Positions 23,197 to 59,296 of a DNA stretch of 64,000 bases are shown one piece after another; position 1 is the stretch's first letter, and each line of letters opens with the position of its first letter. A program made the position numbers and the translations under genes. This DNA comes from Oceanispirochaeta sp. (lineage in GTDB: Bacteria > Spirochaetota > Spirochaetia > DSM-2461), in NCBI GenBank assembly GCA_963663385.2, contig CAXXXD010000004.1, forward strand, positions 672,001 to 736,000, given 5' to 3'. The notes beneath the pieces were generated by a model. It was not told the origin of the DNA and searched no databases. It saw only the letters and a program-made list of their open reading frames with translations.

Positions 23197-24285
23197 TTAG
23201 AACGGATTCAGCTCTTTCATGATCCTGATATAGCTGTGCAGGTTGTCCCAGGGGACTTCCGGTTCAATTACATGGGTTGGAGAGATCAGAAAGCCCCGCT
23301 TCCCATTGCTCATTTCGACTCTTTTCATCACATCGTTTCTCACATCCTCAGGAGATCCGAAAGGCATGGTTGTCTGAGTTCCGATTGAGCCCCAGAAGGC
23401 CAGTCTGTCGCAGTATTTACTGTAGACTTCCTCCACATCCATGCTTTCCGGCTGAACCGGATTCAGTACTTCAACCCCCGCATCGATCAGGTCGTCGATA
23501 AAGGGGGTGGCAAAACCGCAGGAGTGATAGGATATGATTACATCGGGATTGACAGCTTTGGCCGAAGCAATGACCCGGGCCAGTTTGGGTTGAATATACC
23601 GGAGCCATAGGTTCGGGTCCATAAGGGGAGTGGACTGCATGCCTATATCGTCGCCCAGGGCAATCAGGTCCACCCCGGCTTCCGCCAGAAAGGCGGCTGT
23701 CCGGCAGGAGTGTTCGCATATCCTGTCCAGCAGCCGTTCCGCTTTGGGATCGTCCAGCATCATATCCATCATCAGATCTTCCATTCCCCGGATCAGCCAG
23801 GAGCGTTCCCATATCGTCTGCTCAAGCCATGCCCTGACAGCAAGGCCCTTGCCATGGATCTCATTAATAGTTTTCTTTAACCGCTCTTCCTCCCCTTCTG
23901 CTATTTTCGGAAGGAGATGGTTCTCTATATCCTCCAGTGTACATTCACCTGTAAGGGGTGGATGAAAGTGAACCATATGCATGCAGGCTTCCGATCCCCT
24001 GGATGTAGCGGTTCCAAAGGGATCCACTTCAAACTCATCGGGCATATCCCGGTCTGCAAAAAGGGATTTTCCGTCTCCCTCATAGGTTTTTGCCATTTCC
24101 ACCTGAACCGTTCTGTGGAACAGCCCGAAGTACTCTTCCACGGTCTGGCCGGTCTTCATTCCATTGAACTCCGTCAGTTTGGGGGGAGTCAGATCGATAT
24201 CCGGGGGAAAGATCCTGGCATCACATTCTTTCTCTTCTCTCTTTAAAACTTTTCTAAATGCGTCTCTCTTGTTCATACCTGACAT
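23197..24285 (-). CDS. Uroporphyrinogen decarboxylase (MtaA/CmuA-like) family protein 1
   Basis: RGME..MMD, GDD.G.Q, YHSCG, LNPVQP, FWG.IGTQ, SPTH. Confidence 0.85.
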   Translation of the reverse strand: MSGMNKRDAFRKVLKREEKECDARIFPPDIDLTPPKLTEFNGMKTGQTVEEYFGLFHRTVQVEMAKTYEGDGKSLFADRDMPDEFEVDPFGTATSRGSEACMHMVHFHPPLTGECTLEDIENHLLPKIAEGEEERLKKTINEIHGKGLAVRAWLEQTIWERSWLIRGMEDLMMDMMLDDPKAERLLDRICEHSCRTAAFLAEAGVDLIALGDDIGMQSTPLMDPNLWLRYIQPKLARVIASAKAVNPDVIISYHSCGFATPFIDDLIDAGVEVLNPVQPESMDVEEVYSKYCDRLAFWGSIGTQTTMPFGSPEDVRNDVMKRVEMSNGKRGFLISPTHVIEPEVPWDNLHSYIRIMKELNPF

Positions 24286-24375
24286 TATCAGGCCGGATTA
24301 GTCTGTCGTATAGAGATTTTTTGCCGCATAATAGTGGATAAAATGATTGTTTTATATGTTTAAATAGCATTAAGA

Positions 24376-25263
24376 ATGATATATAAGGATTTTAGAGTGT
24401 ATAATATGACTATGAATTCACTCGAGAACAATATCATCTTCAAGAGCCCCGGGAAGATGATTCCCGGACTGACTGTTATTGCTTCAGGTAAAATTGAGCA
24501 CCAGGATTTCAATATTGAAGGATTCCGGGTTTTGAATAACTATGCTGCTGTTTTTGTTTCTAAAGGGCAGGGGGAGTATTACACGCCGGAAGATACGGCT
24601 CCGATCAGGCTGGAAGAAGGGAATCTTTTCTTTCTTGCTCCGGGTGTCGCTCACAGGTATGGACCTGTGGACGGACTGTGGACCCAGTATTGGGTGGTTT
24701 TTACGGGACAGATGGCCCAGCTGTTTGAAAAAGGGGGGTATTTTGATCCTGCCTCGCCGGTTTTGAACAATCTCCGGCGATGGGATGTACAGTCGGCTTT
24801 TGAAGAGCTGATCACTCTTTCCGAACGGAAACCCCTGGATTACGGGATTCAGATGTCGGTTATCCTCTACCGCCTGCTGCTTTCCGTCATTCCGGGGATT
24901 TCCGATGCCGGCAGATCCTGCAACGTGAAGGAGGAACTGACGGAGGAGATAAAAAGCCGGCTTCAGGAGAATCTGCTGACCAGGAGGACCGTAAAGGAGA
25001 TCCTGAGCATCCGGGGGTACTCCTATAACTATCTCAGGGCTGTTTTCAAGGAGATTACCGGGTATTCTCCCATACAGTATCAGAACAGGCTCCGGGTGGA
25101 GTATGTCTGCGAACAGCTCTCCTTTTCCAGTCAGTCCATAAAGGAGATCGCTTATAATGCCGGGTTTGACGATCCTCAGTATTTCAGCAGAATGTTTCGC
25201 AAAACAACCGGGATCACTCCCGGGCAGTATAGAAAGTCCATTGTCTCGTATGCACAGAATTAA
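24376..25263 (+). CDS. AraC family transcriptional regulator
   Basis: HRYGP...W..YWV.F; IKEIAY..GFDDPQYFSRMFRK.TG.TP. Confidence 0.92.
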   Translation: MIYKDFRVYNMTMNSLENNIIFKSPGKMIPGLTVIASGKIEHQDFNIEGFRVLNNYAAVFVSKGQGEYYTPEDTAPIRLEEGNLFFLAPGVAHRYGPVDGLWTQYWVVFTGQMAQLFEKGGYFDPASPVLNNLRRWDVQSAFEELITLSERKPLDYGIQMSVILYRLLLSVIPGISDAGRSCNVKEELTEEIKSRLQENLLTRRTVKEILSIRGYSYNYLRAVFKEITGYSPIQYQNRLRVEYVCEQLSFSSQSIKEIAYNAGFDDPQYFSRMFRKTTGITPGQYRKSIVSYAQN

Positions 25264-25304
25264 GTCTTCTTTTACAATCTGTTTTCCTCGGGTATAATTC
25301 TGCC

Positions 25305-26345
25305 ATGGCAGAAAGAGTATCGCTTCAGGATATCGCCGATTCCCTGGGAATCTCGCGGGGAACCGTTGACCGGGCCATCCATAACCGGGGACGGATTAAC
25401 TCCGAAACCAGAGATAAAGTCCTATCGGAAGCCAGGCGTCTGGGGTATATAGACAGAAAAATAGATTCCTTTCTCCCTCTGAAGGAGAAGAAAATCATAG
25501 AAATCCTGATTCCGGGGGAGGATCCTTTTTTCGGAAAAATCGAGGAGGGTTTCCGGAAGGCCATGGCCAATGAGCCCTCCGGCTTCCAGCTGCGGATCAG
25601 GAATGTCACCCTTGAAAATCCGGAGGAGGAAAAAAAATATCTGGATAAACTCGGCAGGAATCCCGGTGAGGTTTCCGGGGTTATTATCGTCCCATCCGAC
25701 CGGGATTATCTGAACAGTTCCATACTGAAACTGGAACTGGCGGGGATTCGGGTCGTAACGGTTAATACGGATGCTCCCGACAGCGGCAGGTCCGTTTTTT
25801 TCGGCCAGAATCTTTATGCATCCGGTCGTGTTGCCGGTGAGATTCTGATGCAGATAAGCAGTGGACCAGTACTTATCCTGAGCGGATATGAACGGCTGTG
25901 GGCCCATGAGGAGAGAATCAGGGGATTCCTTGATATTTACAGGGAAAACGGGCGTCAACGCGAGATAGTCGGGCCCTTTTTTATGCAGGATAAAATTGCA
26001 AATGCATATACGATACTATCGAATAATCTGGGAGCTGTTAACGGAATCTATGCCGTAAGCGGTCAGGCGACGGAAGGGGCCGGGAGTTTTCTGGCCGGCA
26101 ATAAATTGAAGCTTCCACTGGTGGGGTATGACTGCAGCGATGCAAACCGGAAACTTCTGAAAGCAGGAGCCGTTACATCCCTGATTTATCAGTCCCCCGA
26201 ACTTCAGGGGTATTTTGCCGTTAAATGGCTGATACAATCTTTAAACAATAATTCAATAGGCAGGGATGAAGGAATTCAGACTCCCATCGATATCTATTTC
26301 CGGGAGAATATTGACTTTTTCAAAGACCATACAGAGTTGTATTAA
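25305..26345 (+). CDS. LacI family transcriptional regulator
   Basis: LQDIA..LGISRGTVDRAIH.RG HTH plus periplasmic-binding-protein-like domain. Confidence 0.9.
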   Translation: MAERVSLQDIADSLGISRGTVDRAIHNRGRINSETRDKVLSEARRLGYIDRKIDSFLPLKEKKIIEILIPGEDPFFGKIEEGFRKAMANEPSGFQLRIRNVTLENPEEEKKYLDKLGRNPGEVSGVIIVPSDRDYLNSSILKLELAGIRVVTVNTDAPDSGRSVFFGQNLYASGRVAGEILMQISSGPVLILSGYERLWAHEERIRGFLDIYRENGRQREIVGPFFMQDKIANAYTILSNNLGAVNGIYAVSGQATEGAGSFLAGNKLKLPLVGYDCSDANRKLLKAGAVTSLIYQSPELQGYFAVKWLIQSLNNNSIGRDEGIQTPIDIYFRENIDFFKDHTELY

Positions 26346-26379
26346 ATTACGATTTTCCAGCTGATCATTTTTTTTATAT

Positions 26380-26444
26380 GCGTGCATATGAACGCTTGAC
26401 TGATACCTTTCCGGAGAGGTAAAATTAAGTGTGCAAATGCACGC
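26380..26444 (+). promoter_or_regulatory. Promoter flanked by two palindromic operators (probably for the adjacent LacI protein)
   Basis: TTGACT(26396)-N18-TAAAAT(26420); GCGTGCATATGAACGC at 26380-26395 and GTGTGCAAATGCACGC at 26429-26444. Confidence 0.6.
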
Positions 26445-26474
26445 ATAGTCCAATACTTTCTAAAAGGAGATAAG

Positions 26475-27650
26475 ATGAACGGAAGAGAACGATTACTGAC
26501 CGTATTAAACGGTGAAAGGGCAGACCGGGTCCCGGTTACCCTTTTTATTCAGGGACAGGGGCATTTCATAACCCAGGTAAACCCGGAGACCGACCCCTGG
26601 GATTTTATAGCCATCCAGAAAAATGTCATTGATTATCAGAAGAGCCTGGGGCTGGATGTCCATGCCAGGATGCTTTTTTTCAATCCCCATAAACCGGTTT
26701 TTGCCCATCTGGGGTATATGAATGTGGATGTGCAGACCGAAAACTGGGAAGTGAAACACTGGGAGGAGAGCAATGGTAATACGGTACTCCATAAATACGA
26801 GATAAAAACCCCCGAAGGGACCTTGAAGCAGACTTTCTCCATTAACGAACTCAGACCCAAAACCTATATGTATGCCTGTACGGAAAAGCCGGTAAACGGA
26901 CCGGATGATCTGAAAATCGCCATGAAGTATGAGCCGGCCTATTCGAATGAAGTCAAGAGTGAAATGAAGAGGAATGTGGCGGCTGTCAAGGCGGAAGTCG
27001 GAGATTCGGGTATCCTCTCCGCCTGGACCAACGGCGGTCTGTTCAATAATATTTCCGGTTTTATAGATCATGAAGTGCTCTATTCCATCTTCCTGCTGGA
27101 TCCGGAGTATTACGGGGCGCTCATGGCTTTTGCCAGAAAGCGGGTTTATGATTTTACCGATGCCATCATCCAGACCGGTGTCGATGCCCTCTGTGTGGGA
27201 GGGAATGTAGCCGGAGGTTTTCTGGGAGAGAACTGTTTCGATGAGTATATCCGCCCCTTTGAAACAGAGTATATAAACCATATCCAGAATCAGGAAAAAC
27301 CGGTTATCTACCATAACTGCGGCGATATTATGAACCTGATCGAACCCTATAAGAAGATGGGCATCAAAAATATCGAACCCTTCAGCCCCCGCCCTCTGGG
27401 CGACGGCGATCTGGAAGTTCTGGCGCAGAGAATGAACGGAGAGTTTACGGTAACCGGGGGGGTGGACCAGGTCAATGTGATTCAGAAGGGGAGTGTGGCC
27501 GATGTGGAGCGCGCTACCATTGATACAATCACCAGAGGCAAGAAGCTGAACCGGTATATCCTGCAGAATGCGGATTTTCTGGAGTACGGGACTCCCCTTG
27601 AAAATGTGGAAGCCTATGCCCGGACGGGACTGGCCAACGCGGGGTATTAA
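26475..27650 (+). CDS. URO-D/MtaA-like family protein 2
   Basis: MNGRERL..L.GE..DRVP, TPEGTL, YHNCG, GGVDQ, GTP.ENV. Confidence 0.85.
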   Translation: MNGRERLLTVLNGERADRVPVTLFIQGQGHFITQVNPETDPWDFIAIQKNVIDYQKSLGLDVHARMLFFNPHKPVFAHLGYMNVDVQTENWEVKHWEESNGNTVLHKYEIKTPEGTLKQTFSINELRPKTYMYACTEKPVNGPDDLKIAMKYEPAYSNEVKSEMKRNVAAVKAEVGDSGILSAWTNGGLFNNISGFIDHEVLYSIFLLDPEYYGALMAFARKRVYDFTDAIIQTGVDALCVGGNVAGGFLGENCFDEYIRPFETEYINHIQNQEKPVIYHNCGDIMNLIEPYKKMGIKNIEPFSPRPLGDGDLEVLAQRMNGEFTVTGGVDQVNVIQKGSVADVERATIDTITRGKKLNRYILQNADFLEYGTPLENVEAYARTGLANAGY

Positions 27651-27654
27651 AGAT

Positions 27655-27679
27655 AAAAAAGACCGGCAATTCGCCGGTC
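27655..27679 (-). terminator. Rho-independent terminator (minus strand)
   Basis: GACCGGC-GAATT-GCCGGTC-T6 on the minus strand. Confidence 0.6.
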
Positions 27680-27704
27680 CTGGTTCAGGAATAAACTATT
27701 TTCA

Positions 27705-28904
27705 TTACACAGCACAGTCGGGGCACCGGTCGTGTTCCAGGGAGTAATCTTTCCGTATCTCCCTTTTTCCGGCTATATCCAGGCGCCGGCGCTGGATTCG
27801 TTCAATATCCAGGGGATAGGAGCCGTATTCGTGAACTGTGTTATACATGGTTTCGATATTAAGCAGAGGGATCTTGTCGTGGACCTCGCTGGAAGAGCCT
27901 ATAAAGAGCTTTCGGGACGGTCCGATCCTCTCAATCAGTTCAAGGGTTTCATCCTCCACATCAAAGGCATTCCCGAAGGGGAGGGTCTCTTCGCAGCAGA
28001 CATTTCCAAACAGGAATTTATCAGGCCAGGCCCGGTGAATCTCAAAAATATCGTTGCATCCGCAGCGTTCTATGGGATTGAGTCCCTCTGCATGGAACTT
28101 GTTCTCTCCCAGGATAATATCCAGCAGAGCCCCGTAGCGGCCGTCCGTATGGAAGAGAAAGGATCCTCCCTTTTCCCGGATGGGCCGGGCGATTTTCAGC
28201 CATCGTTCCAGACAGTTCTCCTCTATCCACAGGGGAGAAAAAATGGGGCCGTTGGAACCGGCCATATCCTCACCCATAAACTGCAGGGGCGGTGTAGCAT
28301 TATCCGCATAGACTTTTGTCAGAGCGGCGGAATAGGCTGTGGTACAGTCCAGTATATGATCGATCAGCTCAGGCGCATCGTAAAGGACCATGGAAAAGAG
28401 TTCCAGATCCACATAGGTATAGGCATCACAGAGGGGGCCTTCGACGCAACCGATATAGACCCGGTCCTGTGAGGCGAACCGTTGGGTGATGTTTTTCAGG
28501 TAGGGGGTGAACCACTCCCTGATTTCATCCTCTTCAGGGATGGACGGCATGTTTTTTTCAAGGCCTGCCAGATCATTAAAAGGACGTCTTGATATCCAGG
28601 CTGTATCGCCACCCTGTTCCACACCCCAGCTGGAGGGATCCACACCCATAAAGCGAATCCAGTTGTCTACCTTGTGCCTCATCCAGTGGTCCACAGGATC
28701 ATGGGTAAAGCGGGTAATATCCAGACCTATCCCTTTAAGAGCTCTGGCATTGATATCCAGCAGTTCATCGGAAGAGTATTTTCTGTCGTCCCTGTATCCC
28801 CCGTAAACCCGCAGGACTTCCGTGTTATCTATCAGATCATAGGTCATAATGCGGTCGACTTCCCGGCCCTGCAGGGCCTTTGTCATTCGTTCAAGATTAT
28901 TCAT
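27705..28904 (-). CDS. URO-D/MtaA-like family protein 3
   Basis: MNNLER..AL.GRE.DR, EDMA..NGP.FSP, FHTDG, LNPIE, FGNV; SD AAGGAG before ATG 28904. Confidence 0.8.
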   Translation of the reverse strand: MNNLERMTKALQGREVDRIMTYDLIDNTEVLRVYGGYRDDRKYSSDELLDINARALKGIGLDITRFTHDPVDHWMRHKVDNWIRFMGVDPSSWGVEQGGDTAWISRRPFNDLAGLEKNMPSIPEEDEIREWFTPYLKNITQRFASQDRVYIGCVEGPLCDAYTYVDLELFSMVLYDAPELIDHILDCTTAYSAALTKVYADNATPPLQFMGEDMAGSNGPIFSPLWIEENCLERWLKIARPIREKGGSFLFHTDGRYGALLDIILGENKFHAEGLNPIERCGCNDIFEIHRAWPDKFLFGNVCCEETLPFGNAFDVEDETLELIERIGPSRKLFIGSSSEVHDKIPLLNIETMYNTVHEYGSYPLDIERIQRRRLDIAGKREIRKDYSLEHDRCPDCAV

Positions 28905-28971
28905 GCCTTGCTCCTTTCGCATAACGAATAAATATAAAACCGGAACAGGATTGTTCCGGCTGCAGTAAATT

Positions 28972-29958
28972 TTAATTTTTGGTATTTACCTGTTTAAAAC
29001 GGTCAATCAGCACGGCGATAAGAAGAATAAGACCGCGCACAACGTACTGGTAGAAAGTCGGGATATTCATCAGGTTCATGGCATTCTGCACGGTACCCAT
29101 AATCAGAACACCTACGATAGCCCCCTGTATCGGTGCAACACCGCCCGAGAGGGATACGCCGCCGAGTACACAGGCTGAAATGACATCCAGAGAGAATCCC
29201 ACGGAGGTATTGGGCTGTCCGCTGGTCATTCTGGATGCCAGTACGACTCCCGCAAAACCGGCCATCATTCCCTGAATGGTAAAAATGATTATCTTGATTT
29301 TGTCCACCGCTACACCGGCCAGACGGGTCGCTTCCATATTGCCCCCCATGGCCAGGGTGTTTTTACCGTAGGACGTGTTGTTCAGAAGAACTCCGAATAT
29401 GACAAAACAGACGGTTGTAATCCAGATAGGGTTGGGAATCCCCAGAACCTGTCCGTTTCCCAAACCGAAAAAGCGCATATCCGGAACACCTACGGCGCTT
29501 CCTCCGGAAACAATAAAGGCCAGCCCTCTGACAATCTGAGCCATAGCCAGTGTTGTAATCAGAGCATTGATTTTGGCTTTGGCAATAATCGTACCGTTAA
29601 TCAGGCCGATTAAACCGCCGCCCAGAATCCCGGATACCACACCCAGAAAGATGCTTCCCGTCGCATTGATCATCACAGCAGCGGTTACCCCGGAAAAAGC
29701 GACGATATTTTCAACAGACAGATCAAAGTCTCCGGAGGCCAGGCAGAACAGCATGGTACAGGCTACCATTCCCACCATGGACACCGACAGGCCCAGACCT
29801 ATCATGTTTCTCCATGTAAAGAAGTAGGGGACGAAGATTGAGAGTGCGATAAACAGCAGGATGAAGATTACCAGCATCCCGGAATTCTCCCATAAATGCC
29901 GGATGAATTTAAAAATCTTATTCTCCGATTTCATGGCTACAGTATTTTCCATTTTCAT
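28972..29958 (-). CDS. araH: L-arabinose ABC transporter permease
   Basis: GMVACTMLFCLASGDFDLSV, INALITTLA, ASRMTSGQP, ISACVLGGVSL. Confidence 0.92.
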   Translation of the reverse strand: MKMENTVAMKSENKIFKFIRHLWENSGMLVIFILLFIALSIFVPYFFTWRNMIGLGLSVSMVGMVACTMLFCLASGDFDLSVENIVAFSGVTAAVMINATGSIFLGVVSGILGGGLIGLINGTIIAKAKINALITTLAMAQIVRGLAFIVSGGSAVGVPDMRFFGLGNGQVLGIPNPIWITTVCFVIFGVLLNNTSYGKNTLAMGGNMEATRLAGVAVDKIKIIIFTIQGMMAGFAGVVLASRMTSGQPNTSVGFSLDVISACVLGGVSLSGGVAPIQGAIVGVLIMGTVQNAMNLMNIPTFYQYVVRGLILLIAVLIDRFKQVNTKN

Positions 29959-29970: not shown

Positions 29971-31485
29971 TTATACTGATTTTTCTTCACCGGCTTTATC
30001 CGGCAGAGCTTTGCTTAGAATAGCTTCATCCGAGTATTCCTCTTTCTCAAATGAACCGACAATCTCTCCTTCCCGCATAATAATCATACGGTCGGATACA
30101 CCCATAACTTCGGGCAGATCGCTGGATATACAGATAATGGACTTTCCCTCTTCCGCCAGATTATACATCAGCTGGTAAATTTCATTTTTTGTCCCCACAT
30201 CGATTCCCCGGGTGGGTTCATCCATAATCAGAACATTCACATCTTCCGCCAGCCACCGCGCCAGGATTACCTTCTGCTGGTTTCCGCCCGAAAGGCTTCC
30301 CACATTGTTCTCCCTGCTTGGGGTCTTTATCTGCAGGGTATCGATAAAGGAGTCTGTCGTTTCCTGCTCCGCTTTTTTGTCCAGAAAAAAACCGGCTTTC
30401 ATACTGTGGCGTCTGACGCTTATATTGATGTTTTCATCCACACTCCGGATCGGAATGATTCCATCGTCTTTTCTGTCCTCGGGACAGAAGAAAATCCCGT
30501 TTTCAATGGCATCCCGGGGCGATTGGATCCGAACCTTCTTATCCTCAAGGGTAATGGTTCCGCCGCTGTGTTTTTCCGCGCCGTAAAGCAGCCTCATCAA
30601 TTCGGATCGTCCGGCTCCCACCAGTCCGAAGAATCCCAGAATTTCACCTTTTCTCAGTTCAAAACTGGCCGGTTTCTTCAGTCCGGGACCGGAGATATCG
30701 TCCGCCCTGAAAACAGTATTCCCCAGGGGTCTGCTCCGGTAGGAGTAGATATCCCTGATATCCCGGCCCACCATGCGGCTCACAAGCAGGTCATGGGTTA
30801 CATTCTGCATATCCTGGAAGGTTTCTATTTTTTTCCCGTCCCGGAATACAGTAACGGAATCGCAGATCTTGAAGATCTCTTCCATCCTGTGAGAGACATA
30901 AATGATGGATTTGCCCTTTCCTCTGAGATTTCTGATAATGTCGAAAAGACGGATGGTCTCTTTGTCGGAAAGGGAGCTGGTCGGTTCATCAAAGGCTATA
31001 ATATCCGCATTATGCAGCAGCGCTTTGGCTATTTCTATCATCTGCCTCTGGCCGATGGGCAGATCTTTAATTTTCCTGTTAGGGTCTATATCTTCCAGTA
31101 TGTAGCTGAGTTCTTCACTGGCAATGGACTTCATCGCTTTAAAGTCGATCAGACCGGACTTTTTCAAAGGGTAGTGGCCCAGCAGCAGATTTTCTGCAAC
31201 GGTCATCTCCGGTACAAGGTTCAGTTCCTGATAAATAATGGCCACTCCTGCGTCCAGAGCGTCCCTGGTTCCCTGAAAATCCCGGGGGGTTCCATTAATG
31301 ATGACCTTTCCGTCGGAGGGGTAGTAGGCTCCGCTGAGGATTTTCAGCAGAGTGGACTTACCGGCTCCGTTTTCTCCGATCAGACCGCGAACTTCACCGC
31401 TCTGCACTTCGAAGGAAACTCCATCGAGAGCGCGAACCCCGGGAAAGCTTTTTGATACCGACTGAAATTGTAAATAGGGTGTCAT
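29971..31485 (-). CDS. araG: L-arabinose ABC transporter ATP-binding protein (two NBDs)
   Basis: GENGAGKSTL, IAFDEPTSSLS, YVSHRMEEIF, CPEDRK, LSGGNQQK. Confidence 0.92.
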   Translation of the reverse strand: MTPYLQFQSVSKSFPGVRALDGVSFEVQSGEVRGLIGENGAGKSTLLKILSGAYYPSDGKVIINGTPRDFQGTRDALDAGVAIIYQELNLVPEMTVAENLLLGHYPLKKSGLIDFKAMKSIASEELSYILEDIDPNRKIKDLPIGQRQMIEIAKALLHNADIIAFDEPTSSLSDKETIRLFDIIRNLRGKGKSIIYVSHRMEEIFKICDSVTVFRDGKKIETFQDMQNVTHDLLVSRMVGRDIRDIYSYRSRPLGNTVFRADDISGPGLKKPASFELRKGEILGFFGLVGAGRSELMRLLYGAEKHSGGTITLEDKKVRIQSPRDAIENGIFFCPEDRKDDGIIPIRSVDENINISVRRHSMKAGFFLDKKAEQETTDSFIDTLQIKTPSRENNVGSLSGGNQQKVILARWLAEDVNVLIMDEPTRGIDVGTKNEIYQLMYNLAEEGKSIICISSDLPEVMGVSDRMIIMREGEIVGSFEKEEYSDEAILSKALPDKAGEEKSV

Positions 31486-31571: not shown

Positions 31572-32570
31572 TCAGCCGTTTTCTTTAAGTTTCTGTTCGT
31601 AGTTATCCCGGTTCATCATAACAGCGGTTGTCCATGTGGTGGCAGGAGGTTCAACACCTTCGGTAATCCATTTGTAGACATATTCGCTTGTTTCATATCC
31701 GTGTCTTCTGGGAGAGATCAAGGCTGTGGCATAAAATCCGGTAATTTCGGATTTGGCAAACTCGGCCGTGGCTGTTCCGCTTCCGCCGATTCCCACAGCA
31801 CAGATGTCAGCAGCTGTAAATCCGTTTCCTTCACAGGCTCTGGTTCCGCCCATGGCAGCTTCATCATTCAGACCGCCGATCAGCCAGTGCTTAATCTGGG
31901 GGTTTTTGGTGATTGTGATATTGGCTGCGTTGAATCCGCCTTCTGTATCGGTTGTTTTTTCGGGTGATTCAAAAATAAAAGCTTTGTCGAATCCTTTTTC
32001 CAGCAGGGCATCGGTCATACCGCTTGTTCTGTCTACGGCAGTAGGCAGTTCATTGAAACTGATTCTCATAAAACCGGTTTCATTCTGTTTCCATCCTCTG
32101 GCGTCCATCTGCTCCTTCAAGGTATAACCAACCTGCTTTCCGATTTCATAGGCGGAAATACCCATATGGGGAACTTCTTCCATAGGATTGCCGTTGGCAC
32201 CGACAAAGCGGTCATCCACGCTCATGACCTTCAGGCCGTTGGCTTTGGCTTTGGCCATAATAGCAGGACCGAGTTTTACATCGGGAGTACAGATGACAAA
32301 ACCCTGTGCACCCTGTGCTGCAATATTATCAATAGCCGATAGAACCTTTTCTCCATCGGGGGTTCCGATTTCCAGTACTTTAAAACCGAATTCTCCTCCG
32401 GCTTCCTGGGCGAATTTCCATTCATTCTGGAACCAGGGTTCTTCGGGCATTTTTACAAGAAAACCGATTTTTACCTCATCAGATGATCCGGCTCCCTCCT
32501 GGGCACCGTTGGCAAAGAGCGCTCCTGATAAAAGCATAAAGCAGATTGCAAGGACTAATCCTTTTTTCAT
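31572..32570 (-). CDS. araF: L-arabinose ABC transporter substrate-binding protein
   Basis: GFLVKMPEEPWFQ.EWKFA, PDGEK.L.AID, GFVICTPD.KLG, SVDD; closely matches the AraF pattern as I recall it. Confidence 0.9.
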   Translation of the reverse strand: MKKGLVLAICFMLLSGALFANGAQEGAGSSDEVKIGFLVKMPEEPWFQNEWKFAQEAGGEFGFKVLEIGTPDGEKVLSAIDNIAAQGAQGFVICTPDVKLGPAIMAKAKANGLKVMSVDDRFVGANGNPMEEVPHMGISAYEIGKQVGYTLKEQMDARGWKQNETGFMRISFNELPTAVDRTSGMTDALLEKGFDKAFIFESPEKTTDTEGGFNAANITITKNPQIKHWLIGGLNDEAAMGGTRACEGNGFTAADICAVGIGGSGTATAEFAKSEITGFYATALISPRRHGYETSEYVYKWITEGVEPPATTWTTAVMMNRDNYEQKLKENG

Positions 32571-32605
32571 ATATAACTCCTTTAAGGTTGTTTTCCTCTT
32601 TCAAT

Positions 32606-32768
32606 TACAAGTTATATGCCATTTATTGGAGAATATTGCAAAAAAAATGTAATTTCTTATATGGAATAAAAATGTACTAGGAACATTAAAATAGTACAAT
32701 GGGTGTTCTCCGGAAAGTGGGAAAACCCGATTTCCCCTTTCCCATGGGAATGGGAAAAAACTTTCCCA
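32606..32768 (-). promoter_or_regulatory. Putative sigma54 promoter of araF plus upstream activator sites
   Basis: Minus strand TGGCAT-ATAAC-TTGTA (32606-32621; -12 GT instead of GC). Palindromes TGGGAAA-N4-TTTCCCA (32751-32768) and TGGGAAA-N6-TTTCCC (32718-32736). Confidence 0.5.
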
Positions 32769-32830
32769 GAACCCGGGCTCCCGTCGGATTTGCTTGTCAT
32801 TACTCCATATCACCCTTTATTATCATTCCT

Positions 32831-34150
32831 ATGAGTAAGAGAATTCTGATTGTGGATGATGAGGAGCAGCTTTGCGTCAGCCTCTCCCGGCTGCTGAAAG
32901 CCAGCGGGTATGATCCCGTTTATACAACAGTTCCCGAAATGGCTCTTTCCCTTCTTAAAGAGCAGCCCGCCGACCTGGTCATTACGGATTTGAAAATGCC
33001 CGGGTTTTCCGGAATTGATCTGATTAGGGAAATCCGCATCAGATTTCAGGATCTTCCCATTATAATGGTCTCAGGATACGCCTCAGTGGATAATGTCGTA
33101 AAGGCCATGCGTTACGGAGCCCTGAACTTTTTTGAGAAACCTGTCCGGTTTACCGATTTGATCAAGGATATAGATCTGCTTTTCCCGCAGGGAAAATGCG
33201 ATTCAGGTTCTGGTCCGAACCTGCTTGATATAACCTCCTCCAATAAGAGGATGCAGGATAAAATTTCCATGCTTCACAAAGCCGCCCCGACGGATGCCCC
33301 GGTCCTGATTACGGGAGAGTCCGGTACGGGAAAGGAGCTGGCCGCATCGGCCATCCATTCAAGAAGCAACCGCCGTGACGGCCCGTTTATAAAACTCAAC
33401 TGTGCTGCCATCCCCGAGTCTCTTCTGGAAAGCGAGCTTTTCGGGCATGATAAAGGGGCTTTTACTGATGCCGTAGACAGCCGGCCCGGGAAGTTTGAGG
33501 TGGCCGAAGGGGGTACCATTTTTCTGGATGAAATAGGAGAGATGAGTATTAAAACACAGGCCAAACTCCTCCGTGTCCTTCAGGAGAAGGAGTTTGAACG
33601 CCTGGGATCGCATAAAACCCGTAAAATGGATGTGCGGATCGTAGCGGCAACCAACCGGGATCTGAATAATCAGATTAAAAAGGGAGGCTTCCGTGAAGAT
33701 CTGTACTACAGGCTTTCGGTAATACAGATCGAACTGCCGGCTCTGCGTGAACGCAGGGAAGATATTCTACCTCTTTTTCGGGGGTTCCTTGCAGAGTTCA
33801 ACAGCAAGTACTGCAAAAATATAAAAGGGATGGATCTTGAAACAGAGACTCTGTTTCTGGGGCACGACTGGCCCGGCAATATCAGGGAGCTCCGGAATAC
33901 GGTGGAAAGGATGGTTATCTTCTGTGAAGGGGAAACTCTCTGTTCTCAGCTCCTGCCGGAACAGTACAATCGTTATCCCCTTACGGATGAACTTATCCCT
34001 CTCCGTTATGCTTCGGACAGCATTACAAGGGAGATTATTCTGGATACTCTGGAGAAAACCGGAGGCAGCCGCAGCAGATCGGCGGAAATCCTGGGGATTA
34101 CCAGACGAACCCTGTACAATAAAATGAAGAAACTGAGGATAGAGGTCTGA
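32831..34150 (+). CDS. sigma54-dependent NtrC-family response regulator
   Basis: Receiver ILIVDDE/TDLKMP, GESGTGKE, GAFTDA, FLDEIG, FREDLYYRL, WPGNIREL, Fis-type HTH. Confidence 0.95.
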   Translation: MSKRILIVDDEEQLCVSLSRLLKASGYDPVYTTVPEMALSLLKEQPADLVITDLKMPGFSGIDLIREIRIRFQDLPIIMVSGYASVDNVVKAMRYGALNFFEKPVRFTDLIKDIDLLFPQGKCDSGSGPNLLDITSSNKRMQDKISMLHKAAPTDAPVLITGESGTGKELAASAIHSRSNRRDGPFIKLNCAAIPESLLESELFGHDKGAFTDAVDSRPGKFEVAEGGTIFLDEIGEMSIKTQAKLLRVLQEKEFERLGSHKTRKMDVRIVAATNRDLNNQIKKGGFREDLYYRLSVIQIELPALRERREDILPLFRGFLAEFNSKYCKNIKGMDLETETLFLGHDWPGNIRELRNTVERMVIFCEGETLCSQLLPEQYNRYPLTDELIPLRYASDSITREIILDTLEKTGGSRSRSAEILGITRRTLYNKMKKLRIEV

Positions 34151-35965
34151 ATGGATTCCCCGATACGGCAGCCTCTGCTTCAAATGCAGAATATCCGCTA
34201 CTCCTATGGGTCTCTCAAGGCTCTGACCGGTATTGATTTCGACCTTTACCCATCCGAGATACACGCCCTCTCCGGTGATCATGGATCCGGGAAATCCTCT
34301 CTGGTAAAGCTGTTGAGCGGTTCTCTGAACTGCCAGACCGGTATGATAAAGATTAAAGGCAGACAGATCACAACCCTGTCTCCCTCCATCGCGGTACAGC
34401 TGGGAATCGGCATGGTTTATCAGAATGAGGAGATTATTCCCACCGGAACCCTTATGGATAATGTCTATCTGGGGCAGTTCCCCCTGTTTATGCTTCCCAG
34501 GAGTAAAGCGGCGCTGCTGCAGCAGTGCCGGGAACTGTTTGACTTTTACGGGTTTGAAGAGGACCCGAGAATGAAAATTGCGGAACTGTCTCCCACACGC
34601 CGGCATATGCTCCCTTTTTTAAGGGTTCTTGCCCGGGGAGCGGATATACTGATTCTGGATGAAATCGCACAGAAAACAACTCCCGAAGAACAGGAACACA
34701 TCTATAAACTGCTGCAGATCTGCAGGGATGCCGGTAAGGGCATAATCTATGTAACTTCCAATATTGATGAAATCTTTCGAATCGCCGACCGTGTAACGAT
34801 TCTTCATAACGGTTTACGCCGCAGTACCGAAGAGGTTTCCCGTGTGGACCGTACGCGGCTGGTTAACCTTGCCTTCAATTTTGCCATGGACCGGGAAGAC
34901 GGCGAATCGCCAGTGGACCATGAGGTCCTTCTGATCTCCCGTTATGATAAGCGGATAATTAATGATATCCCCCAGGGGATAATGATTATTTCTCCGGAAA
35001 ATGAAATACAGGATATTAATACGGCGGCTGCCAGGATACTTGAGTGTCAACCCGAGGATCTGACCGGGTCGGATCTGTCCGAGTATTTCATGGCGCTGCC
35101 GATTGAAAAAAAGGAAGAAATTCACAGGGCAATCCTGGAGCGGAGGAAGGTATTGTGGCAGAGCCTCAAATTCCTCAGGAACAAGAGACTGAAAATCCGG
35201 ATCTCCCCTCTGGGAGAGGAAGGGGACAAGAAACAGGGGCTGCTTCTTTTTCTTGAAGATTTTTCTTCGGATTATGAAACACGAGAATACCTGCTGCAGG
35301 CGGAAAAATTTGTTTCTACTGCGGAAATGGCCGCAGGGGTTGCTCATGAGGTGAATAATCCTCTGGGGATTATTCAGAATTATCTGGATCTTCTCCAGAT
35401 GGAATCTCTGAGCGAGAACGGCGAAGACTGCGTTCAACGGATTCAATCCGAGCTGAGCCGGATTGTAGAGATCATCAGCAGTCTGCTCTCCTTTTCCAGA
35501 GCCGGCGTTCGTCCCCTGAAAACCTTGAATGTGCATGATCTTCTGGATGACGTTGTCCTATTGATGGGGCATAAGCTTAAGCACCGGGAAATCCGTTTAT
35601 TCAAACGCTACTCATCCGGGAAATTATACATAGTGGCTCATGAGAACAAGCTGAAACAGCTGTTCCTTAATCTGCTGAACAATGCATCCGAGGCTGTACT
35701 TAATAAGGGTGAGATTTCCATCTCGACCGGAAAATCGGGAAACTATGTGAATGTAAACATTACAGATAACGGAAACGGCATCCCCGGGGATATCAGGGAT
35801 CAGATCTTTTCTCCTTTTTTTACCACTAAAGTAACGAAAACCAATACCGGTCTGGGATTGTCCATCTGTCAGCATATTGTCGAATCCTATAATGGCTTTA
35901 TAACAGTGAAGAGTACTCCGGGCGAGGCAACCACCTTTACCGTGCGATTGCCTCTTCAAGCCTGA
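34151..35965 (+). CDS. Histidine kinase with N-terminal degenerate sugar-ABC ATPase domain (NBD-PAS-HisKA-HATPase)
   Basis: Walker A GDHGSGKSS, Q-loop MVYQ, Walker B ILILDE, ADRVTIL.NG; then PAS, GVAHEVNNPL, DNGNGI, FFTTK..TGLGL. One continuous ORF with no TM segment. Confidence 0.88.
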   Translation: MDSPIRQPLLQMQNIRYSYGSLKALTGIDFDLYPSEIHALSGDHGSGKSSLVKLLSGSLNCQTGMIKIKGRQITTLSPSIAVQLGIGMVYQNEEIIPTGTLMDNVYLGQFPLFMLPRSKAALLQQCRELFDFYGFEEDPRMKIAELSPTRRHMLPFLRVLARGADILILDEIAQKTTPEEQEHIYKLLQICRDAGKGIIYVTSNIDEIFRIADRVTILHNGLRRSTEEVSRVDRTRLVNLAFNFAMDREDGESPVDHEVLLISRYDKRIINDIPQGIMIISPENEIQDINTAAARILECQPEDLTGSDLSEYFMALPIEKKEEIHRAILERRKVLWQSLKFLRNKRLKIRISPLGEEGDKKQGLLLFLEDFSSDYETREYLLQAEKFVSTAEMAAGVAHEVNNPLGIIQNYLDLLQMESLSENGEDCVQRIQSELSRIVEIISSLLSFSRAGVRPLKTLNVHDLLDDVVLLMGHKLKHREIRLFKRYSSGKLYIVAHENKLKQLFLNLLNNASEAVLNKGEISISTGKSGNYVNVNITDNGNGIPGDIRDQIFSPFFTTKVTKTNTGLGLSICQHIVESYNGFITVKSTPGEATTFTVRLPLQA

Positions 35966-35970
35966 ATGGC

Positions 35971-36822
35971 TTACAGACGGATCTTTTTCTCAAATGCCGC
36001 CCTGAGTTTTCCGGATATCCCCCCCGGGGTTCCCGTCCCGATAATCCGTCCGTCAATACAGGTTACAGGGATTATTTCAGCCCCGGATCCTGTCAGAAAG
36101 CACTCTTCCGCCGTATAAAGGTCAAAGCGGGTCAGGGTTGTTTCCTCAACAGGGATCCCCAGTTCACGGCCCAGCTCAAGTATGGTTGCACGGGTTATCC
36201 CTTCCAGAATCCCCAGCCAGGGGGCGGGTGTCAGGAGTTTCCCTTCCCGGATAATAAAAATATTGTCCGCCGTACACTCCGTCACATACCCGTCCCTGTT
36301 CAGCATTACCGCTTCAGGGCATCCGGCATCCCGGGCTTCCATCTTTGCCATGATGTTTGTCATATAGTTGAGGCTCTTTACCCGGGGATCAAATATATCC
36401 GGGGAGAGTCTTCTTGACGCGGACGTAATGATTTTCATTCCCTTGTCGTAGAGTTCCTGCGGATAGATCTGGATATCCTCGACTATTATAATGACCGAGG
36501 ATACGGGGCAGCTGGAGGGATCAATTCCCAGATTCCCCTTTCCCCTGGTGACAAGCAGACGGATATAGCCCTCTTTTTTTTCATTTAGCTCAACCGTTTT
36601 TTCTACTGTGCGGATCATCTCCTCCCGGTTCATCGGGATAGTCAGTCTGAGGACTTTTGCGCTGTCATAGAGGCGCCGGATATGCTCCTCCAGTTTAAAC
36701 ACTCTGCCTGCGTAAATCCGGATTCCCTCGAAAATTCCGTCGCCGTACAGCAGGCCGTGGTCAAATACGGAAACCTTTGCCTTATCCCTGTCGTAATATT
36801 TGCCGTCCATATAGATTTTCAT
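35971..36822 (-). CDS. ilvE: Branched-chain amino acid aminotransferase
   Basis: SVFDHGLLYGDGIFEGIR, YIRL.VTRG, KSLNY, LEGITR, EECFLTG. Confidence 0.92.
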   Translation of the reverse strand: MKIYMDGKYYDRDKAKVSVFDHGLLYGDGIFEGIRIYAGRVFKLEEHIRRLYDSAKVLRLTIPMNREEMIRTVEKTVELNEKKEGYIRLLVTRGKGNLGIDPSSCPVSSVIIIVEDIQIYPQELYDKGMKIITSASRRLSPDIFDPRVKSLNYMTNIMAKMEARDAGCPEAVMLNRDGYVTECTADNIFIIREGKLLTPAPWLGILEGITRATILELGRELGIPVEETTLTRFDLYTAEECFLTGSGAEIIPVTCIDGRIIGTGTPGGISGKLRAAFEKKIRL

Positions 36823-37685: not shown

Positions 37686-38387
37686 TTAACCGTATTTTTC
37701 GCTTTTTTCGGCATCAAGAATCAACCCGAGGGCTTTATCCCTGCTTCTGGCTTTAATCAGGTTCCGGATTAATTGATTGTCTGCCGCCATCTGACTGATA
37801 CGGGACAGGATGCGCAGGTGCACCACCTCACTGTCTGTAATTATCAGAAAGAAAAGGTGAGTGGGAAGGTTGTCCAGTGAATCGAAATCGCAGCCCTCCG
37901 GGCAGATCCCCAGGATAACTTCCGGTCCCGGCAGGATATTCTCCTCCGGTCGCCGCAGATGGGGGATGGCTACATGCAGACCAATGGCCGTTGAGCTCAT
38001 TTCTTCCCGGTGCATGAGCTTCTTCAGAAAAAGCAGTCTGTTATCCTGACTGATCTGCAACGGGGCTGTCAGCTGTTGAAGCACTTCCTCTTTGCTGCCG
38101 GGCTTCAGATCGCAGATTATACGTTCTTTTCTGATCAGACGGGAAAGGGGAACCAGGGAGCCTTCCTTCTCCAGAAGGGAGGACAGGTCATTCCTGGGAA
38201 GAACAGTCATTCTGGATATCAGCCAGTCATCAATCATAGGCCTCATGAAACGCCATTGACTGGCAATTTTAGCACAGGGAATTTCTCCTTTCTGGATCAT
38301 CCGCAGAACTGTTTTTTCTGCAACCTTGAGGTATTCCGCCACTTCACTGAGGGTCATAATCTGGTTATTAAAAGTGCTGTCAGGCAT
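37686..38387 (-). CDS. HTH_17 (excisionase-like) + PTS EIIA (PtsN-like) protein
   Basis: MTLSEVAEYLK...GEIP..K...QWRF; RE..STAIG..VAIPH phospho-His; D.LP..LFF. Confidence 0.88.
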   Translation of the reverse strand: MPDSTFNNQIMTLSEVAEYLKVAEKTVLRMIQKGEIPCAKIASQWRFMRPMIDDWLISRMTVLPRNDLSSLLEKEGSLVPLSRLIRKERIICDLKPGSKEEVLQQLTAPLQISQDNRLLFLKKLMHREEMSSTAIGLHVAIPHLRRPEENILPGPEVILGICPEGCDFDSLDNLPTHLFFLIITDSEVVHLRILSRISQMAADNQLIRNLIKARSRDKALGLILDAEKSEKYG

Positions 38388-49329: not shown

Positions 49330-50355
49330 ATGAGTTGGAAAAAGGGTATTCTTCTGCTTCTGGCAGCCCTGATGTCATTTTCTACAGTTTTTGCCGGCGG
49401 TCAGTCTGAAGCCGCAGGTCCCAAGCCTGAATCCGAATGGAAAATCGCACTTGTTCCCAAAGACAGTACAAATGCATGGTTTGTAAGAATGGAAGTCGGT
49501 GTCCGGGAGTTTGCCAAGGACAGCGGATTGAACGCATTTCAGAAAGGACCCGCAAAAACCGATGCGGCCATGCAGGTTCAGGTTATTCAGGACCTTATTG
49601 CTCAAGGTGTTGATGCCCTTTGCATTGTTCCTGTCGACCCTGCCGCTCTGGAACCTGTTCTGGCAGAAGCCCTGGATAAAGGAATCGTTGTAGTCACCCA
49701 CGAAGCATCCTTTCAGGAAAATACAATGTATGATATCGAAGCATTTAACAATGCTGATTACGGTGCTTTTATTATGGATAACCTGGCAAAAGCTATGGGA
49801 GAAGAGGGTGTTTATACAACTATGGTTGGACATGTAACCAACGCTTCCCATAACGAATGGGCTGACGGCGGTGTTGCCCATCAGGCCAAGGCGTACCCCG
49901 GCCTTACCCTTCTGGCGGAAGAACCCAGAGTCGAATCTGAGGATAACATGGAAAGGGCCTATGAAAAAGCCAAGGAACTATTCAAAAAATACCCCAATCT
50001 GAAAGGTATTATGGGAACGTCCTCCAAAGACGCACCCGGTGTTTCCAGAGCCATTGAAGAACTTGGTCTGAAAGATAAAGTATTTGTAGCGGGTACCGGT
50101 CTTGTTTCCGAATGCGGACCTTTCCTGGAAAGCGGAATCCTGCAGTATATTACTCTCTGGGATCCCAAGGATGCCGGTTATGCCATGTGTTCACTGGCTG
50201 CCAAAATTCTGAGAGGCGAAGAGATCGGAAACGGTCTGGATCTGGGGCTCAAAGGTTATGACAACATGCAGTTTGCACCCGGCTCGGATAAAGTGCTGAT
50301 CGGCTCCGGATGGATTGTTATGGATAAGAACAATATGCTTGACTATAACTTCTAA
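49330..50355 (+). CDS. CUT2 sugar ABC substrate-binding protein (LsrB/RhaS-like)
   Basis: VPK...AWF.RM..G, GP...DAA.Q, DLIAQGVDA, LWDP..AGY. Confidence 0.85.
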   Translation: MSWKKGILLLLAALMSFSTVFAGGQSEAAGPKPESEWKIALVPKDSTNAWFVRMEVGVREFAKDSGLNAFQKGPAKTDAAMQVQVIQDLIAQGVDALCIVPVDPAALEPVLAEALDKGIVVVTHEASFQENTMYDIEAFNNADYGAFIMDNLAKAMGEEGVYTTMVGHVTNASHNEWADGGVAHQAKAYPGLTLLAEEPRVESEDNMERAYEKAKELFKKYPNLKGIMGTSSKDAPGVSRAIEELGLKDKVFVAGTGLVSECGPFLESGILQYITLWDPKDAGYAMCSLAAKILRGEEIGNGLDLGLKGYDNMQFAPGSDKVLIGSGWIVMDKNNMLDYNF

Positions 50356-50370
50356 TTACCCGGTTTGAGG

Positions 50371-50402
50371 AAGGGCTACCTCTGAATGGGGTAGCCCTTT
50401 TT
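50371..50402 (+). terminator. Intercistronic terminator/stabiliser
   Basis: AAGGGCTACC...GGTAGCCCTTTTT. Confidence 0.6.
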
Positions 50403-50424
50403 ATAGGAAAAGGAGTTAGTCCCT

Positions 50425-51933
50425 ATGTCTGAATATATTTTACAAGTTGATAATATAAAGAAGTCCTTCGGTGGCGTTCAAGCGCTCAAAGGTGTTTCTC
50501 TGTCTATTAAAAAGGGCGAGATTCACTCTCTCGCCGGAGAAAACGGGTGTGGAAAATCTACACTGATAAAAGTTATATCAGGTTTCTATGAAGCCGATGA
50601 AGGTTCCCTTACTCTGGATGGGGAGACGTATGACAAAATCTCCCCCATGGAAGCCATTCATAAAGGGATTCAGGTTATCTACCAGGATTTCTCCGTCTTC
50701 CCGAATCTGACGGTAATGGAAAATCTGGCTTTTAATATGGAACTGATGAACCGTCGTAAATTTGTTAATCAAAGACGGATGAGAAAAATTGCTGAAACGG
50801 CTCTGTCTCGAATCGATTTCAAGGTTGATCTTGATGAACGGGTAGAGAATCTTCCCGTTGCGGATAAACAACTGATTGCTATCAGCCGCGCCCTTCTCTA
50901 TGATGCCAGGCTGATTATAATGGATGAGCCGACTACTGCTCTGACCAAAAAAGAAGTGAAAGCCCTGTTTGAAGTTATAAAAAGCCTTCAGGCCCAGGGG
51001 ATCGCCATTCTGTTTGTCTCTCATAAACTGGATGAAGTATTTGAAATCTCGGAAGGATACACCATTCTCCGGAATGGTGAAAATATAATCAGCGGTGAAA
51101 CAGCCGAGCTTACGGATAGTAAGTTTGCCTATTATATGACAGGCCGTGAGTTTAAGGAGGCTTCTTTTACACCTCCGTCAATCGGTAAAACACCCATTGT
51201 CCAGACTGAAAATCTCAGCCTGAACGGAGCCTATAAGGACGTCTGCTTTGATTTGAAGCCGGGAGAGATCCTGGGGATAACAGGACTTCTGGGATCCGGA
51301 CGGACCGAACTGGTGCAAACCCTGTTCGGTTTGAGTACGCCGGATTCGGGTACCATAAAAATGGAAGGGAAGGCCGTTCAGTTTAACAATGTGAAAGATG
51401 CGGTTGCCAAAGGCATTGGTTATGTTCCGGAAGACCGCCTGACAGAGGGGCTTTTTCTTCCCCAGTCCATCAGCCTTAATACAATCGTTGCCAAAATGGA
51501 CAAACTTTCCGGTAGTTCCGGGTTTCTTGATCAGGAACGGATCGATGGAGAAGTCAAGGGCTGGATAAAGGATCTGGCAATTGCTGCCAGTGATTCGGAA
51601 CAGCCTGTTCAGACTCTGTCCGGAGGAAACCAGCAGAAGGTTGTTCTGGCCCGCTGGCTGGCTAACGATTTGAAAGTTCTTATATTAAACGGTCCGACAG
51701 TCGGTGTCGACATCGGGTCGAAATACGATATCCACTCTCTGCTTCGAGAGCTGGCCGGTAAAGGAATGGGGATTATTGTTATTTCCGATGACCTTCCTGA
51801 AATCATGGCCACATGCAACCGCATCCTTGTTATGAGGGACGGCAGCTTTGTTGAAGAGCTGGATCCTTCCTCAACAACGGAGGAGCATCTGAGCAATGTT
51901 ATTACGGGAGATCTGGAGGGAGCATCCATATGA
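50425..51933 (+). CDS. CUT2 sugar ABC ATP-binding protein
   Basis: GENGCGKST, MDEPTTAL, FVSHKL, VPEDR, LSGGNQQK. Confidence 0.93.
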   Translation: MSEYILQVDNIKKSFGGVQALKGVSLSIKKGEIHSLAGENGCGKSTLIKVISGFYEADEGSLTLDGETYDKISPMEAIHKGIQVIYQDFSVFPNLTVMENLAFNMELMNRRKFVNQRRMRKIAETALSRIDFKVDLDERVENLPVADKQLIAISRALLYDARLIIMDEPTTALTKKEVKALFEVIKSLQAQGIAILFVSHKLDEVFEISEGYTILRNGENIISGETAELTDSKFAYYMTGREFKEASFTPPSIGKTPIVQTENLSLNGAYKDVCFDLKPGEILGITGLLGSGRTELVQTLFGLSTPDSGTIKMEGKAVQFNNVKDAVAKGIGYVPEDRLTEGLFLPQSISLNTIVAKMDKLSGSSGFLDQERIDGEVKGWIKDLAIAASDSEQPVQTLSGGNQQKVVLARWLANDLKVLILNGPTVGVDIGSKYDIHSLLRELAGKGMGIIVISDDLPEIMATCNRILVMRDGSFVEELDPSSTTEEHLSNVITGDLEGASI

Positions 51934-53971: not shown

Positions 53972-53982
53972 AAGGAGAGTTT

Positions 53983-54297: not shown

Positions 54298-54319
54298 CAG
54301 CATGTGAAGGAGAAGCGTT

Positions 54320-55294: not shown

Positions 55295-55324
55295 TACGTA
55301 TTTTTTCTTTGATAGAACACTTCG

Positions 55325-55354
55325 ACCGCTGTTCCTCCGGGGCAGCGGTTTTTT
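55325..55354 (+). terminator. Rho-independent terminator
   Basis: ACCGCTG...CAGCGGT followed by a T-tract. Confidence 0.7.
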
Positions 55355-55402
55355 AATTAATGTATGCTTTTTATCAAACGAAGAACATGTGTAGATTTAA
55401 TG

Positions 55403-55611: not shown

Positions 55612-55725
55612 GAAAGTGAACAGCTTGCGCTTAGTGAAATAGGGTTTGATTCCAGAGCTGAGTCGGGATTCAAAATCTGCGAGGCCCTGCCTGGATAAAA
55701 TATGTATCTATCAAAAGGAGAGAGT

Positions 55726-59284: not shown

Positions 59285-59296
59285 GAGATTCCCTGA

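Follow-up and report, generated by a model that had tools for sequence, protein, structure and literature searches.

A soluble histidine kinase carrying a CUT2 transporter-type ATPase domain: candidate sensor of a sugar transporter-induction module in Oceanispirochaeta

Transport components are reused for signalling in systems such as ChvE-VirA, LuxP-LuxQ and MalK-MalT—with the kinases of the first two carrying periplasmic domains of their own, and MalK sequestering the activator MalT with no fused kinase involved. CbrB, the partner of the kinase CbrA, is a sigma54 activator. The ABC transporter BceAB and the histidine kinase BceS act as one sensing unit, the regulator of which induces the transporter (PMC10314905); in PstSCAB-PhoU-PhoR, the kinase, which lacks a sensor facing outside, responds to the conformation adopted by an ABC importer, with a PAS domain in the signalling path (PMC5775613); and CbrA has part of a transporter covalently fused to PAS-kinase domains (PMC7096432). 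The tandem ATPases of CUT2 transporters (AraG, RbsA, XylG and NupO) are reported to combine one working and one degenerate site, and their first nucleotide-binding domain (NBD1), with an intact Walker A motif and a degenerate signature, forms half of the single working site (PMC11466899). Here, we examined a gene of Oceanispirochaeta sp. whose product joins a nucleotide-binding domain (NBD) of this type to a histidine kinase. The gene lies within a window of 64,000 nucleotides—the whole stretch of DNA analysed—and the features of the locus are collected in Table 1.

Table 1. Features of the araFGH and regulator-kinase locus (positions in the window; residue numbers are those of the kinase)
Feature	Position	Strand	Remarks
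araH, CUT2 permease	28972..29958	-	NF008441 493 bits, cut-off 378; BPD_transp_2
araG, intact tandem CUT2 ATPase	29971..31485	-	NF008442 780 bits, cut-off 689
araF	31572..32570	-	Homologue of L-arabinose-binding protein, E 1e-100 vs solved proteins
Predicted sigma54 -24/-12 promoter of araFGH	32606..32621	-	TGGCAT-N5-TTGTA, GT variant at -12
Candidate enhancer, inverted repeats	32718..32768	.	TGGGAA-N6-TTCCCA at 32751-32768; imperfect repeat at 32718-32737
Sigma54-dependent response regulator	32831..34150 (likely start 32831)	+	REC-AAA+-HTH_8, GAFTDA loop
Fusion histidine kinase	34151..35965	+	CUT2 NBD1-like domain, linker helix, PAS, HisKA, HATPase_c
ABC nucleotide-binding domain, residues 8-245	34172..34885	+	Pfam, alignment, tree
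NBD motifs			Walker A 42-49 incl. His44, Gln91, degenerate signature 146-150, Asp170-Glu171, Ser203 at switch-His position
PAS domain, residues 267-371	34949..35263	+	Lowest conservation of all domains, mean identity 25%
Kinase core	35324..35959	+	Phospho-acceptor His399 (HEVNNPL); N, G1, F, G2 boxes intact

The kinase is encoded by a single ORF of 604 amino acids, in which Pfam placed ABC_tran at residues 25-172, PAS at 267-370, HisKA at 392-451 and HATPase_c at 498-603—all four of the domains expected from an earlier note on this DNA. The features of a HisKA-type (NtrB-like) kinase are present, i.e., HisKA with its phospho-acceptor His and HATPase_c with the four boxes listed in Table 1. The NCBIfam AraG model covers residues 7-239 with 155 bits against a cut-off of 689, and one ABC_tran stretch was found rather than the two fused NBDs of a CUT2 tandem ATPase (AraG/RbsA). 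No membrane helix was detected in the protein, which we regard as soluble because its top 19-residue hydropathy is just 1.14. The domain and hydropathy data bear out the earlier description of one ORF joining an NBD to PAS-HisKA-HATPase with no transmembrane segment, and the motifs quoted there are all in place: GDHGSGKSS, MVYQ and ILILDE, together with DEIAQK and YVTSNIDEIF where AraG has DEPTSS and YVSHRMEEIF, respectively. The AlphaFold2 model (mean pLDDT 83.8, with 140 relatives in the alignment) displays a full NBD fold and, C-terminal to it, linker helices, PAS and the kinase core; among the Foldseek matches listed, none was a solved structure of an NBD-kinase fusion. At the DNA level, the stretch from 32500 to 36200 lies inside a single contig, with zero differences, in three of the four runs compared (two samples, two studies; one of the two samples may be the sequence's own source, and the fourth run spans part of the stretch only).

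A search with this protein returned 119 other proteins among its best 120 matches, 40-84% identical and all carrying ABC_tran, HisKA and HATPase_c at full length; the best 120 matches of a search with a distant paralogue likewise carry the three domains at full length, and the two lists share nothing. Among the matches listed, those with organism names belong mostly to Spirochaetota, with KSB3 and others also represented. Five copies of the fusion kinase exist in the Oceanispirochaeta genome, the other four (L001:9055-10860, L002:9161-10996, L003:9101-10945 and L004:8960-10777) being 26-34% identical to the one studied here; each has a sigma54 activator in front and a CUT2 operon with a sigma54 site alongside. 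The L004 paralogue is paired with a nucleoside-like transporter of the Bmp type that has two permeases. Single genomes carry up to six copies of the fusion kinase. The family is common among Spirochaetota: hits to its profile were obtained in 31 of 61 relatives, in 59 of 251 genomes at the level of the class and in 13 of 301 at that of the phylum. It is also present in genomes around loci titled KSB3 (7/41) and Planctomycetota (18/51), as well as in two further genome sets (4/14 and 1/51). In two scans of sequence collections, fusions made up 13 of 80 and 2 of 80 listed matches, the plain kinases among the rest serving as controls. The ESM Atlas holds a 62-member cluster with the fusion architecture (score 0.99), and it also offered leads with a score of 0.83, namely ABC_tran-GAF-kinase clusters of about 830-850 amino acids in Actinomycetota and a 515-aa Spirochaetota cluster with ABC_tran-HisKA-HATPase and no PAS family shown. 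The earlier note knew of no characterised example of this architecture; our literature search, outside of which most subscription journals and supplements lay, likewise found no published description of an ABC ATPase-PAS-kinase arrangement. In the accessible passages of the KSB3 genome paper, many sensors are noted and this protein is not among them (PMC4312070).

To place the NBD, we built a midpoint-rooted FastTree phylogeny from 87 kinase NBDs, the NBD1 and NBD2 of 69 cognate ATPases and the remaining ATPases of the genome. All 87 kinase NBDs fell into one clade (support 1.0), sister to the sugar-type NBD1s (0.87). Because they form one clade, the phylogeny points to a single, old fusion event in which the kinase NBD arose from NBD1, the N-terminal half of CUT2 ATPases. 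A recent copying of the neighbouring araG was considered and rejected: the domain shares 30% identity with AraG NBD1, other ATPases of the genome score higher, and the kinase NBDs group together. Stand-alone or otherwise fused copies of the kinase NBD were also sought—42 short matches proved to be ordinary CUT2 ATPases or fragments, and the best 150 matches in a representative set were all ordinary ATPases with canonical motifs.

The residues retained by the domain follow a distinct pattern. Among 140 aligned members, Lys48 (Walker A) and Asp170 are invariant, and near-complete conservation was found for Glu171 (Walker B; 138), Gln91 (Q-loop; 139), an acidic residue at position 103 (136) and Asn104 (136). 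The D-loop Asp is absent, with position 177 being mostly Ser or Thr, and the LSGG signature occurs in 0 of 240 members, this protein having a degenerate LSPTR instead. Over 62 loci, the kinase domain retains Lys48 in 100%, Gln91 in 97%, Asp170 in 100%, Glu171 in 87% and His203 in 66%, and the cognate NBD2 has LSGGNQQK and the D-loop Asp in 100%, its Walker A Lys, Q-loop Gln and switch His having been lost. As this motif comparison with NBD1 and NBD2 indicates, motifs that act within the NBD are present in the kinase domain and those supplied by a partner are absent. Since the N-terminal half of AraG also has no LSGG, the missing signature is inherited rather than newly lost. Two further changes set the family apart. 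In 133 of 140 kinases, the P-loop carries His (His44 in this protein) in the position of an Asn that is invariant in NBD1 and touches the partner D-loop in ABC dimers, and the Pro after Walker B, invariant in both NBD1 and NBD2, is absent in 140/140. Given that LSGG is missing in all 240 members, the kinase homodimer would be expected to bind ATP and not to hydrolyse it well. The earlier note had attributed such a hydrolysis-dead state to loss of the switch His; this holds for the present protein, with its Ser203, but not for the family, in which 105 of 140 relatives keep the His and nearly all keep the Walker B Glu. Over the 62 loci, the loss concerns a subclade, the His being kept in 41% of clade I and 90% of clade II. 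The degenerate signature, the P-loop His, the sigma54 promoter of araF and the four additional paralogues had been overlooked there.

The last base of the regulator, 34150, immediately precedes the kinase ATG, and both genes point away from araF, so the coordinates agree with the earlier placement of the kinase directly behind a sigma54 NtrC-type regulator. We surveyed a first set of 95 distinct genes (90 full length) and a second, independent set of 59 genes, with neighbour labels taken from profiles built on checked seeds. An activator gene is found directly upstream of the kinase in 143 of 144 members with room (87/88 and 56/56 in the first and second sets, respectively), and a CUT2 permease within 7 kb in 98 of the 104 members with 7 kb on both sides (62/64 and 36/40). 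A full transporter is located near the kinase in 61/64 and 34/40 cases, a full tandem ATPase gene remains at 95 of the 104 loci with room, and the partner transporter always belongs to the CUT2 class, i.e., the class from which the NBD originates. By comparison, a CUT2 permease was near plain kinases in 0 of 145 control loci (0 of 57 long ones), and within the Oceanispirochaeta genome such a permease lies near 5/5 fusion kinases vs 6/60 other kinases. Kin are not independent, and the neighbourhood counts are therefore read as patterns, not probabilities; together with the promoter counts given below, they lend strong support to the proposed link with CUT2 transporters and an NtrC-type regulator.

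Several loci depart from the usual layout. At L206:8962-13568, the kinase, permease and binding protein are intact (58-72% identity to orthologues) and there is no ATPase gene; the best ATPase match in that genome reaches just 45%, none being orthologous, and the 219-aa regulator has REC and HTH, the AAA+ domain having been lost in frame. This single case may represent a receptor-only module or decay. At L248:7670-16135, the regulator-kinase pair is followed by LacI and araB/araD/araA-like genes with no transporter within 9 kb, and L256 has no transporter in 9 kb either. Two adjoining regulator-kinase pairs surround one transporter at L258 and L284 and two transporters at L010/L260 and L268, and at L307 the genes after the kinase are a binding protein, an ORF of 723 codons that matches permeases, and another permease, with no separate tandem ATPase labelled. 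Elsewhere in the window, three genes of the URO-D family (methyltransferase-like) lie just downstream of araH together with two AraC and one LacI regulators (23200-28922); an excisionase-type HTH_17 is fused to a PTS EIIA domain (37686-38387); and two more CUT2 operons, with two permease-like genes each, have neither an upstream sigma54 site nor a fusion kinase (49330-60253). The genome also carries an arabinose isomerase gene.

On the output side, the neighbourhood counts and the sigma54 promoter pattern make it very probable that the regulator-kinase pair activates the transporter operon araFGH. The sigma54 match upstream of araFGH is not above chance in the window alone, its support coming from the pattern across loci: a site precedes 72 of 83 partner operons vs 0 of 83 on the reverse strand and 1.8% of shuffles, and further controls gave 18/586 for other genes and 0/87 for activator genes. 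Within the Oceanispirochaeta genome, the site is found before all five fusion-kinase operons vs 0/33 other tandem-ATPase operons. It is not universal, as a strict site was present at 19 of 20 loci in one group of the second set and at 6 of 22 in the other. Of 63 loci, 46 have inverted repeats 40-200 bp upstream (vs 32% of shuffles), and those of araFGH recur at the same position in L209 and with the same motif in L199 and L193. The candidate enhancers vary by regulator group (TGTTCA...TGAACA, TGTCCT...AGGACA, TGTGCA...TGCACA and TGGGAA...TTCCCA), and such group-specific elements could insulate paralogues from one another. Moreover, 69 of 70 activators have a GAFTGA-type loop and the genome has a sigma54 gene—hence, the sequence-level features of sigma54 enhancer-binding regulation of araFGH are all present, from an enhancer-binding protein with a GAFTGA-type loop and a -24/-12 promoter to upstream repeats and sigma54 itself.

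Building on the observed architecture, ancestry, neighbourhood and promoter pattern, we infer phosphotransfer, ligand, docking and the direction of signalling as follows. The kinase would be the sensor of a transporter-induction module and would sense sugar by docking of its NBD on AraH—a reading to which we give slightly better than an even chance. Having no outside sensor of its own, the kinase would use its NBD, taken as a retained CUT2 NBD1, to bind the cytoplasmic coupling loop of AraH as AraG does, so that in a fraction of AraH dimers a kinase dimer would occupy the place of AraG. AraH would shift once sugar-loaded AraF docks, moving two ATP-bound, non-hydrolysing NBDs, and the linker helix and PAS would relay this motion to the core of the kinase. 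The soluble kinase would then phosphorylate the adjacent sigma54 activator, which would bind inverted repeats about 100-150 bp upstream and open the araFGH promoter; meanwhile, complexes containing AraG would go on transporting.

Evidence on docking points both ways. In its favour, the NBD stays beside its source transporter class and keeps the Q-loop and EN motifs, which in ABC importers face the membrane subunit; in addition, L206 keeps kinase, permease and binding protein without an orthologous ATPase. A complex prediction of AraH2 with the kinase NBD, made with our own alignments, scored 0.54 vs 0.00 for the best of three controls. In calibration, 116 of 157 solved pairs and 2 of 215 mismatched ones attained the mark; the range of ≤0.60, in which this value falls, held 18 of the 157 and both mismatches, and scores in it are wrong more often than right except where contact is likely beforehand. 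The runs agreed in at least 97% of contacts, with a partner pLDDT of 76, and the fit may reflect the likeness of any NBD to solved ABC transporters; a sequence search found no solved CUT2 permease, other ABC complexes being solved. This prediction, akin to the modelling of a kinase dimer with AraH2 proposed in the earlier note, lends docking weak support. In 18 of 22 genomes (68 loci, z 2.1), kinase NBDs are slightly closer to their cognate NBD1 than to the remaining NBD1s present there, most strongly so in residues 92-145 (z 2.3-2.5, for 12 regions tried in related genomes). Evidence against docking begins with the trees of kinase and transporter, which agree poorly: the rank correlation of the NBD was 0.30 with the permease and 0.75 with its own kinase core, and mirror-tree signals reached z values of at most 2.0-2.4 after removal of close kin, 8 of 70 loci having been left out of the later tests for ambiguous pairing. 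AraH-like permeases that are 68-93% identical pair with kinase NBDs of 31-86% identity, including those of another clade; partners were therefore swapped. In 62 loci, losses at position 103 were shared with the cognate NBD1 in 5/5 cases and with permease position 203 in 6/7. This coupling, predicted in advance, failed in 40 new loci—two kinase losses occurred there, neither with a partner change, as did 2 + 2 partner changes without a kinase loss, these being few events of low power. Also against docking, no permease lies within 7 kb of six of the 104 members with room (one of them, L248, has just arabinose catabolic genes beside it), the kinase must compete with AraG and choose one of 38 tandem-ATPase systems in the cell, and the catalytic Glu and His persist in most relatives although docking alone would not require them. 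As to the idea that the kinase docks on AraH in place of AraG, docking itself is weakly supported as plausible, but 'in place of' cannot mean genetic replacement because of the tandem ATPase genes that accompany nearly all of the kinases.

Other explanations of the locus have to be weighed against this one. That the fusion is an assembly or frameshift artefact, a possibility raised in the earlier note, or else a decaying leftover, is scarcely credible. The stretch sits in identical single contigs from two samples, the best 120 matches of each of two non-overlapping searches give 240 distinct full-length homologues, Lys48 and Asp170 never vary in the alignment and the kinase NBDs are monophyletic; contig support and conservation lead us to reject the artefact, and nothing was found in its favour. 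The neighbourhood and promoter data fit equally well a free cytoplasmic sensor, whose PAS domain or remodelled NBD pocket would bind the imported sugar or a metabolite, with the NBD as an ATP-gated dimerisation or energy-check module and the transporter as target and inducer supplier only. PAS is the most variable domain, as expected of a ligand-specific sensor, some members have no permease nearby, and two family-specific changes at the NBD dimer face, His44 and the universally lost Pro, suggest a remodelled NBD-NBD contact. However, such a sensor leaves unexplained the near-exclusive location of a CUT2-derived NBD next to CUT2 permeases and the retention of its membrane-facing motifs; PAS has no conserved ligand residues beyond structural ones and tracks the binding protein weakly (partial r 0.13, z about 1), and the 515-aa cluster mentioned above, a lead only, shows no PAS family. 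We consider this explanation unlikely, if by no means negligible.

The complementary motifs of the kinase domain and NBD2 over 62 loci could also be taken to mean that the kinase senses flux, its NBD pairing in trans with AraG NBD2—which would supply the signature and the D-loop Asp—so that a shared ATP site would report the transport cycle. Retention of the tandem ATPase in 95/104 loci agrees with such pairing, as does the kin-corrected partial correlation between NBD and NBD2, the highest obtained (r 0.22, z 2.0 and 1.6). Yet NBD2 already has a covalent partner in the NBD1 of the same protein, most kinases carry His at the position of the P-loop Asn, Ser replaces the switch His in this protein and L206 has no cognate ATPase, all of which render trans pairing improbable to our minds.

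Returning to docking on AraH, a bolder and more tentative version, which we put somewhat below even, holds that the kinase is an alternative ATPase subunit: depending on whether AraG or the kinase dimer joins them, the same AraF-AraH parts would form a pump or a transmembrane sugar receptor, respectively, and signals would travel through the ABC coupling interface itself. Some loci, e.g., L206, may have kept the receptor form only. If docking is true, a kinase carrying its transporter's ATPase domain would reuse the ABC coupling interface for signalling, and a soluble kinase would gain access to outside sugar with the specificity of a binding protein; should the kinase prove an exchangeable ABC subunit, this would be a new kind of system. 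The finding would also be relevant to the question of why, in CUT2 ATPases, one site works and the other is degenerate. The arabinose locus lends itself well to testing, with a ligand that can be predicted and AraFGH homologues that have been studied in depth.

Transporter-dependent kinases are known, and in the cases compared here contact runs via membrane helices or an adaptor. BceS is a separate membrane kinase that contacts BceB via membrane helices (PMC10314905); unlike BceS, the fusion kinase is soluble, has a transporter-derived NBD, and would signal to sigma54 in the service of a sugar importer. Neither an intramembrane kinase with two helices nor a BceB-type (FtsX) permease is found at our locus, the permease being of the BPD_transp_2 type. 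PhoR differs in being membrane-anchored, in needing the adaptor PhoU and in having no NBD (PMC5775613); no PhoU-like gene is among those annotated in the window. In CbrA the fused part is described as a membrane SLC5 carrier rather than an ABC ATPase domain (PMC7096432)—the N-terminal SLC5 domain of CbrA/CrbS-type kinases is absent from the fusion kinase. Compared with NBD1 of the CUT2 tandem ATPases, its ancestral source, the kinase NBD is followed by no NBD2, has His for the P-loop Asn, has lost the Pro after Walker B and leads through its C-terminal helix into PAS and kinase. The fusion kinase thus resembles BceAB-BceS, Pst-PhoU-PhoR and CbrA in part, while departing from each in its defining features.
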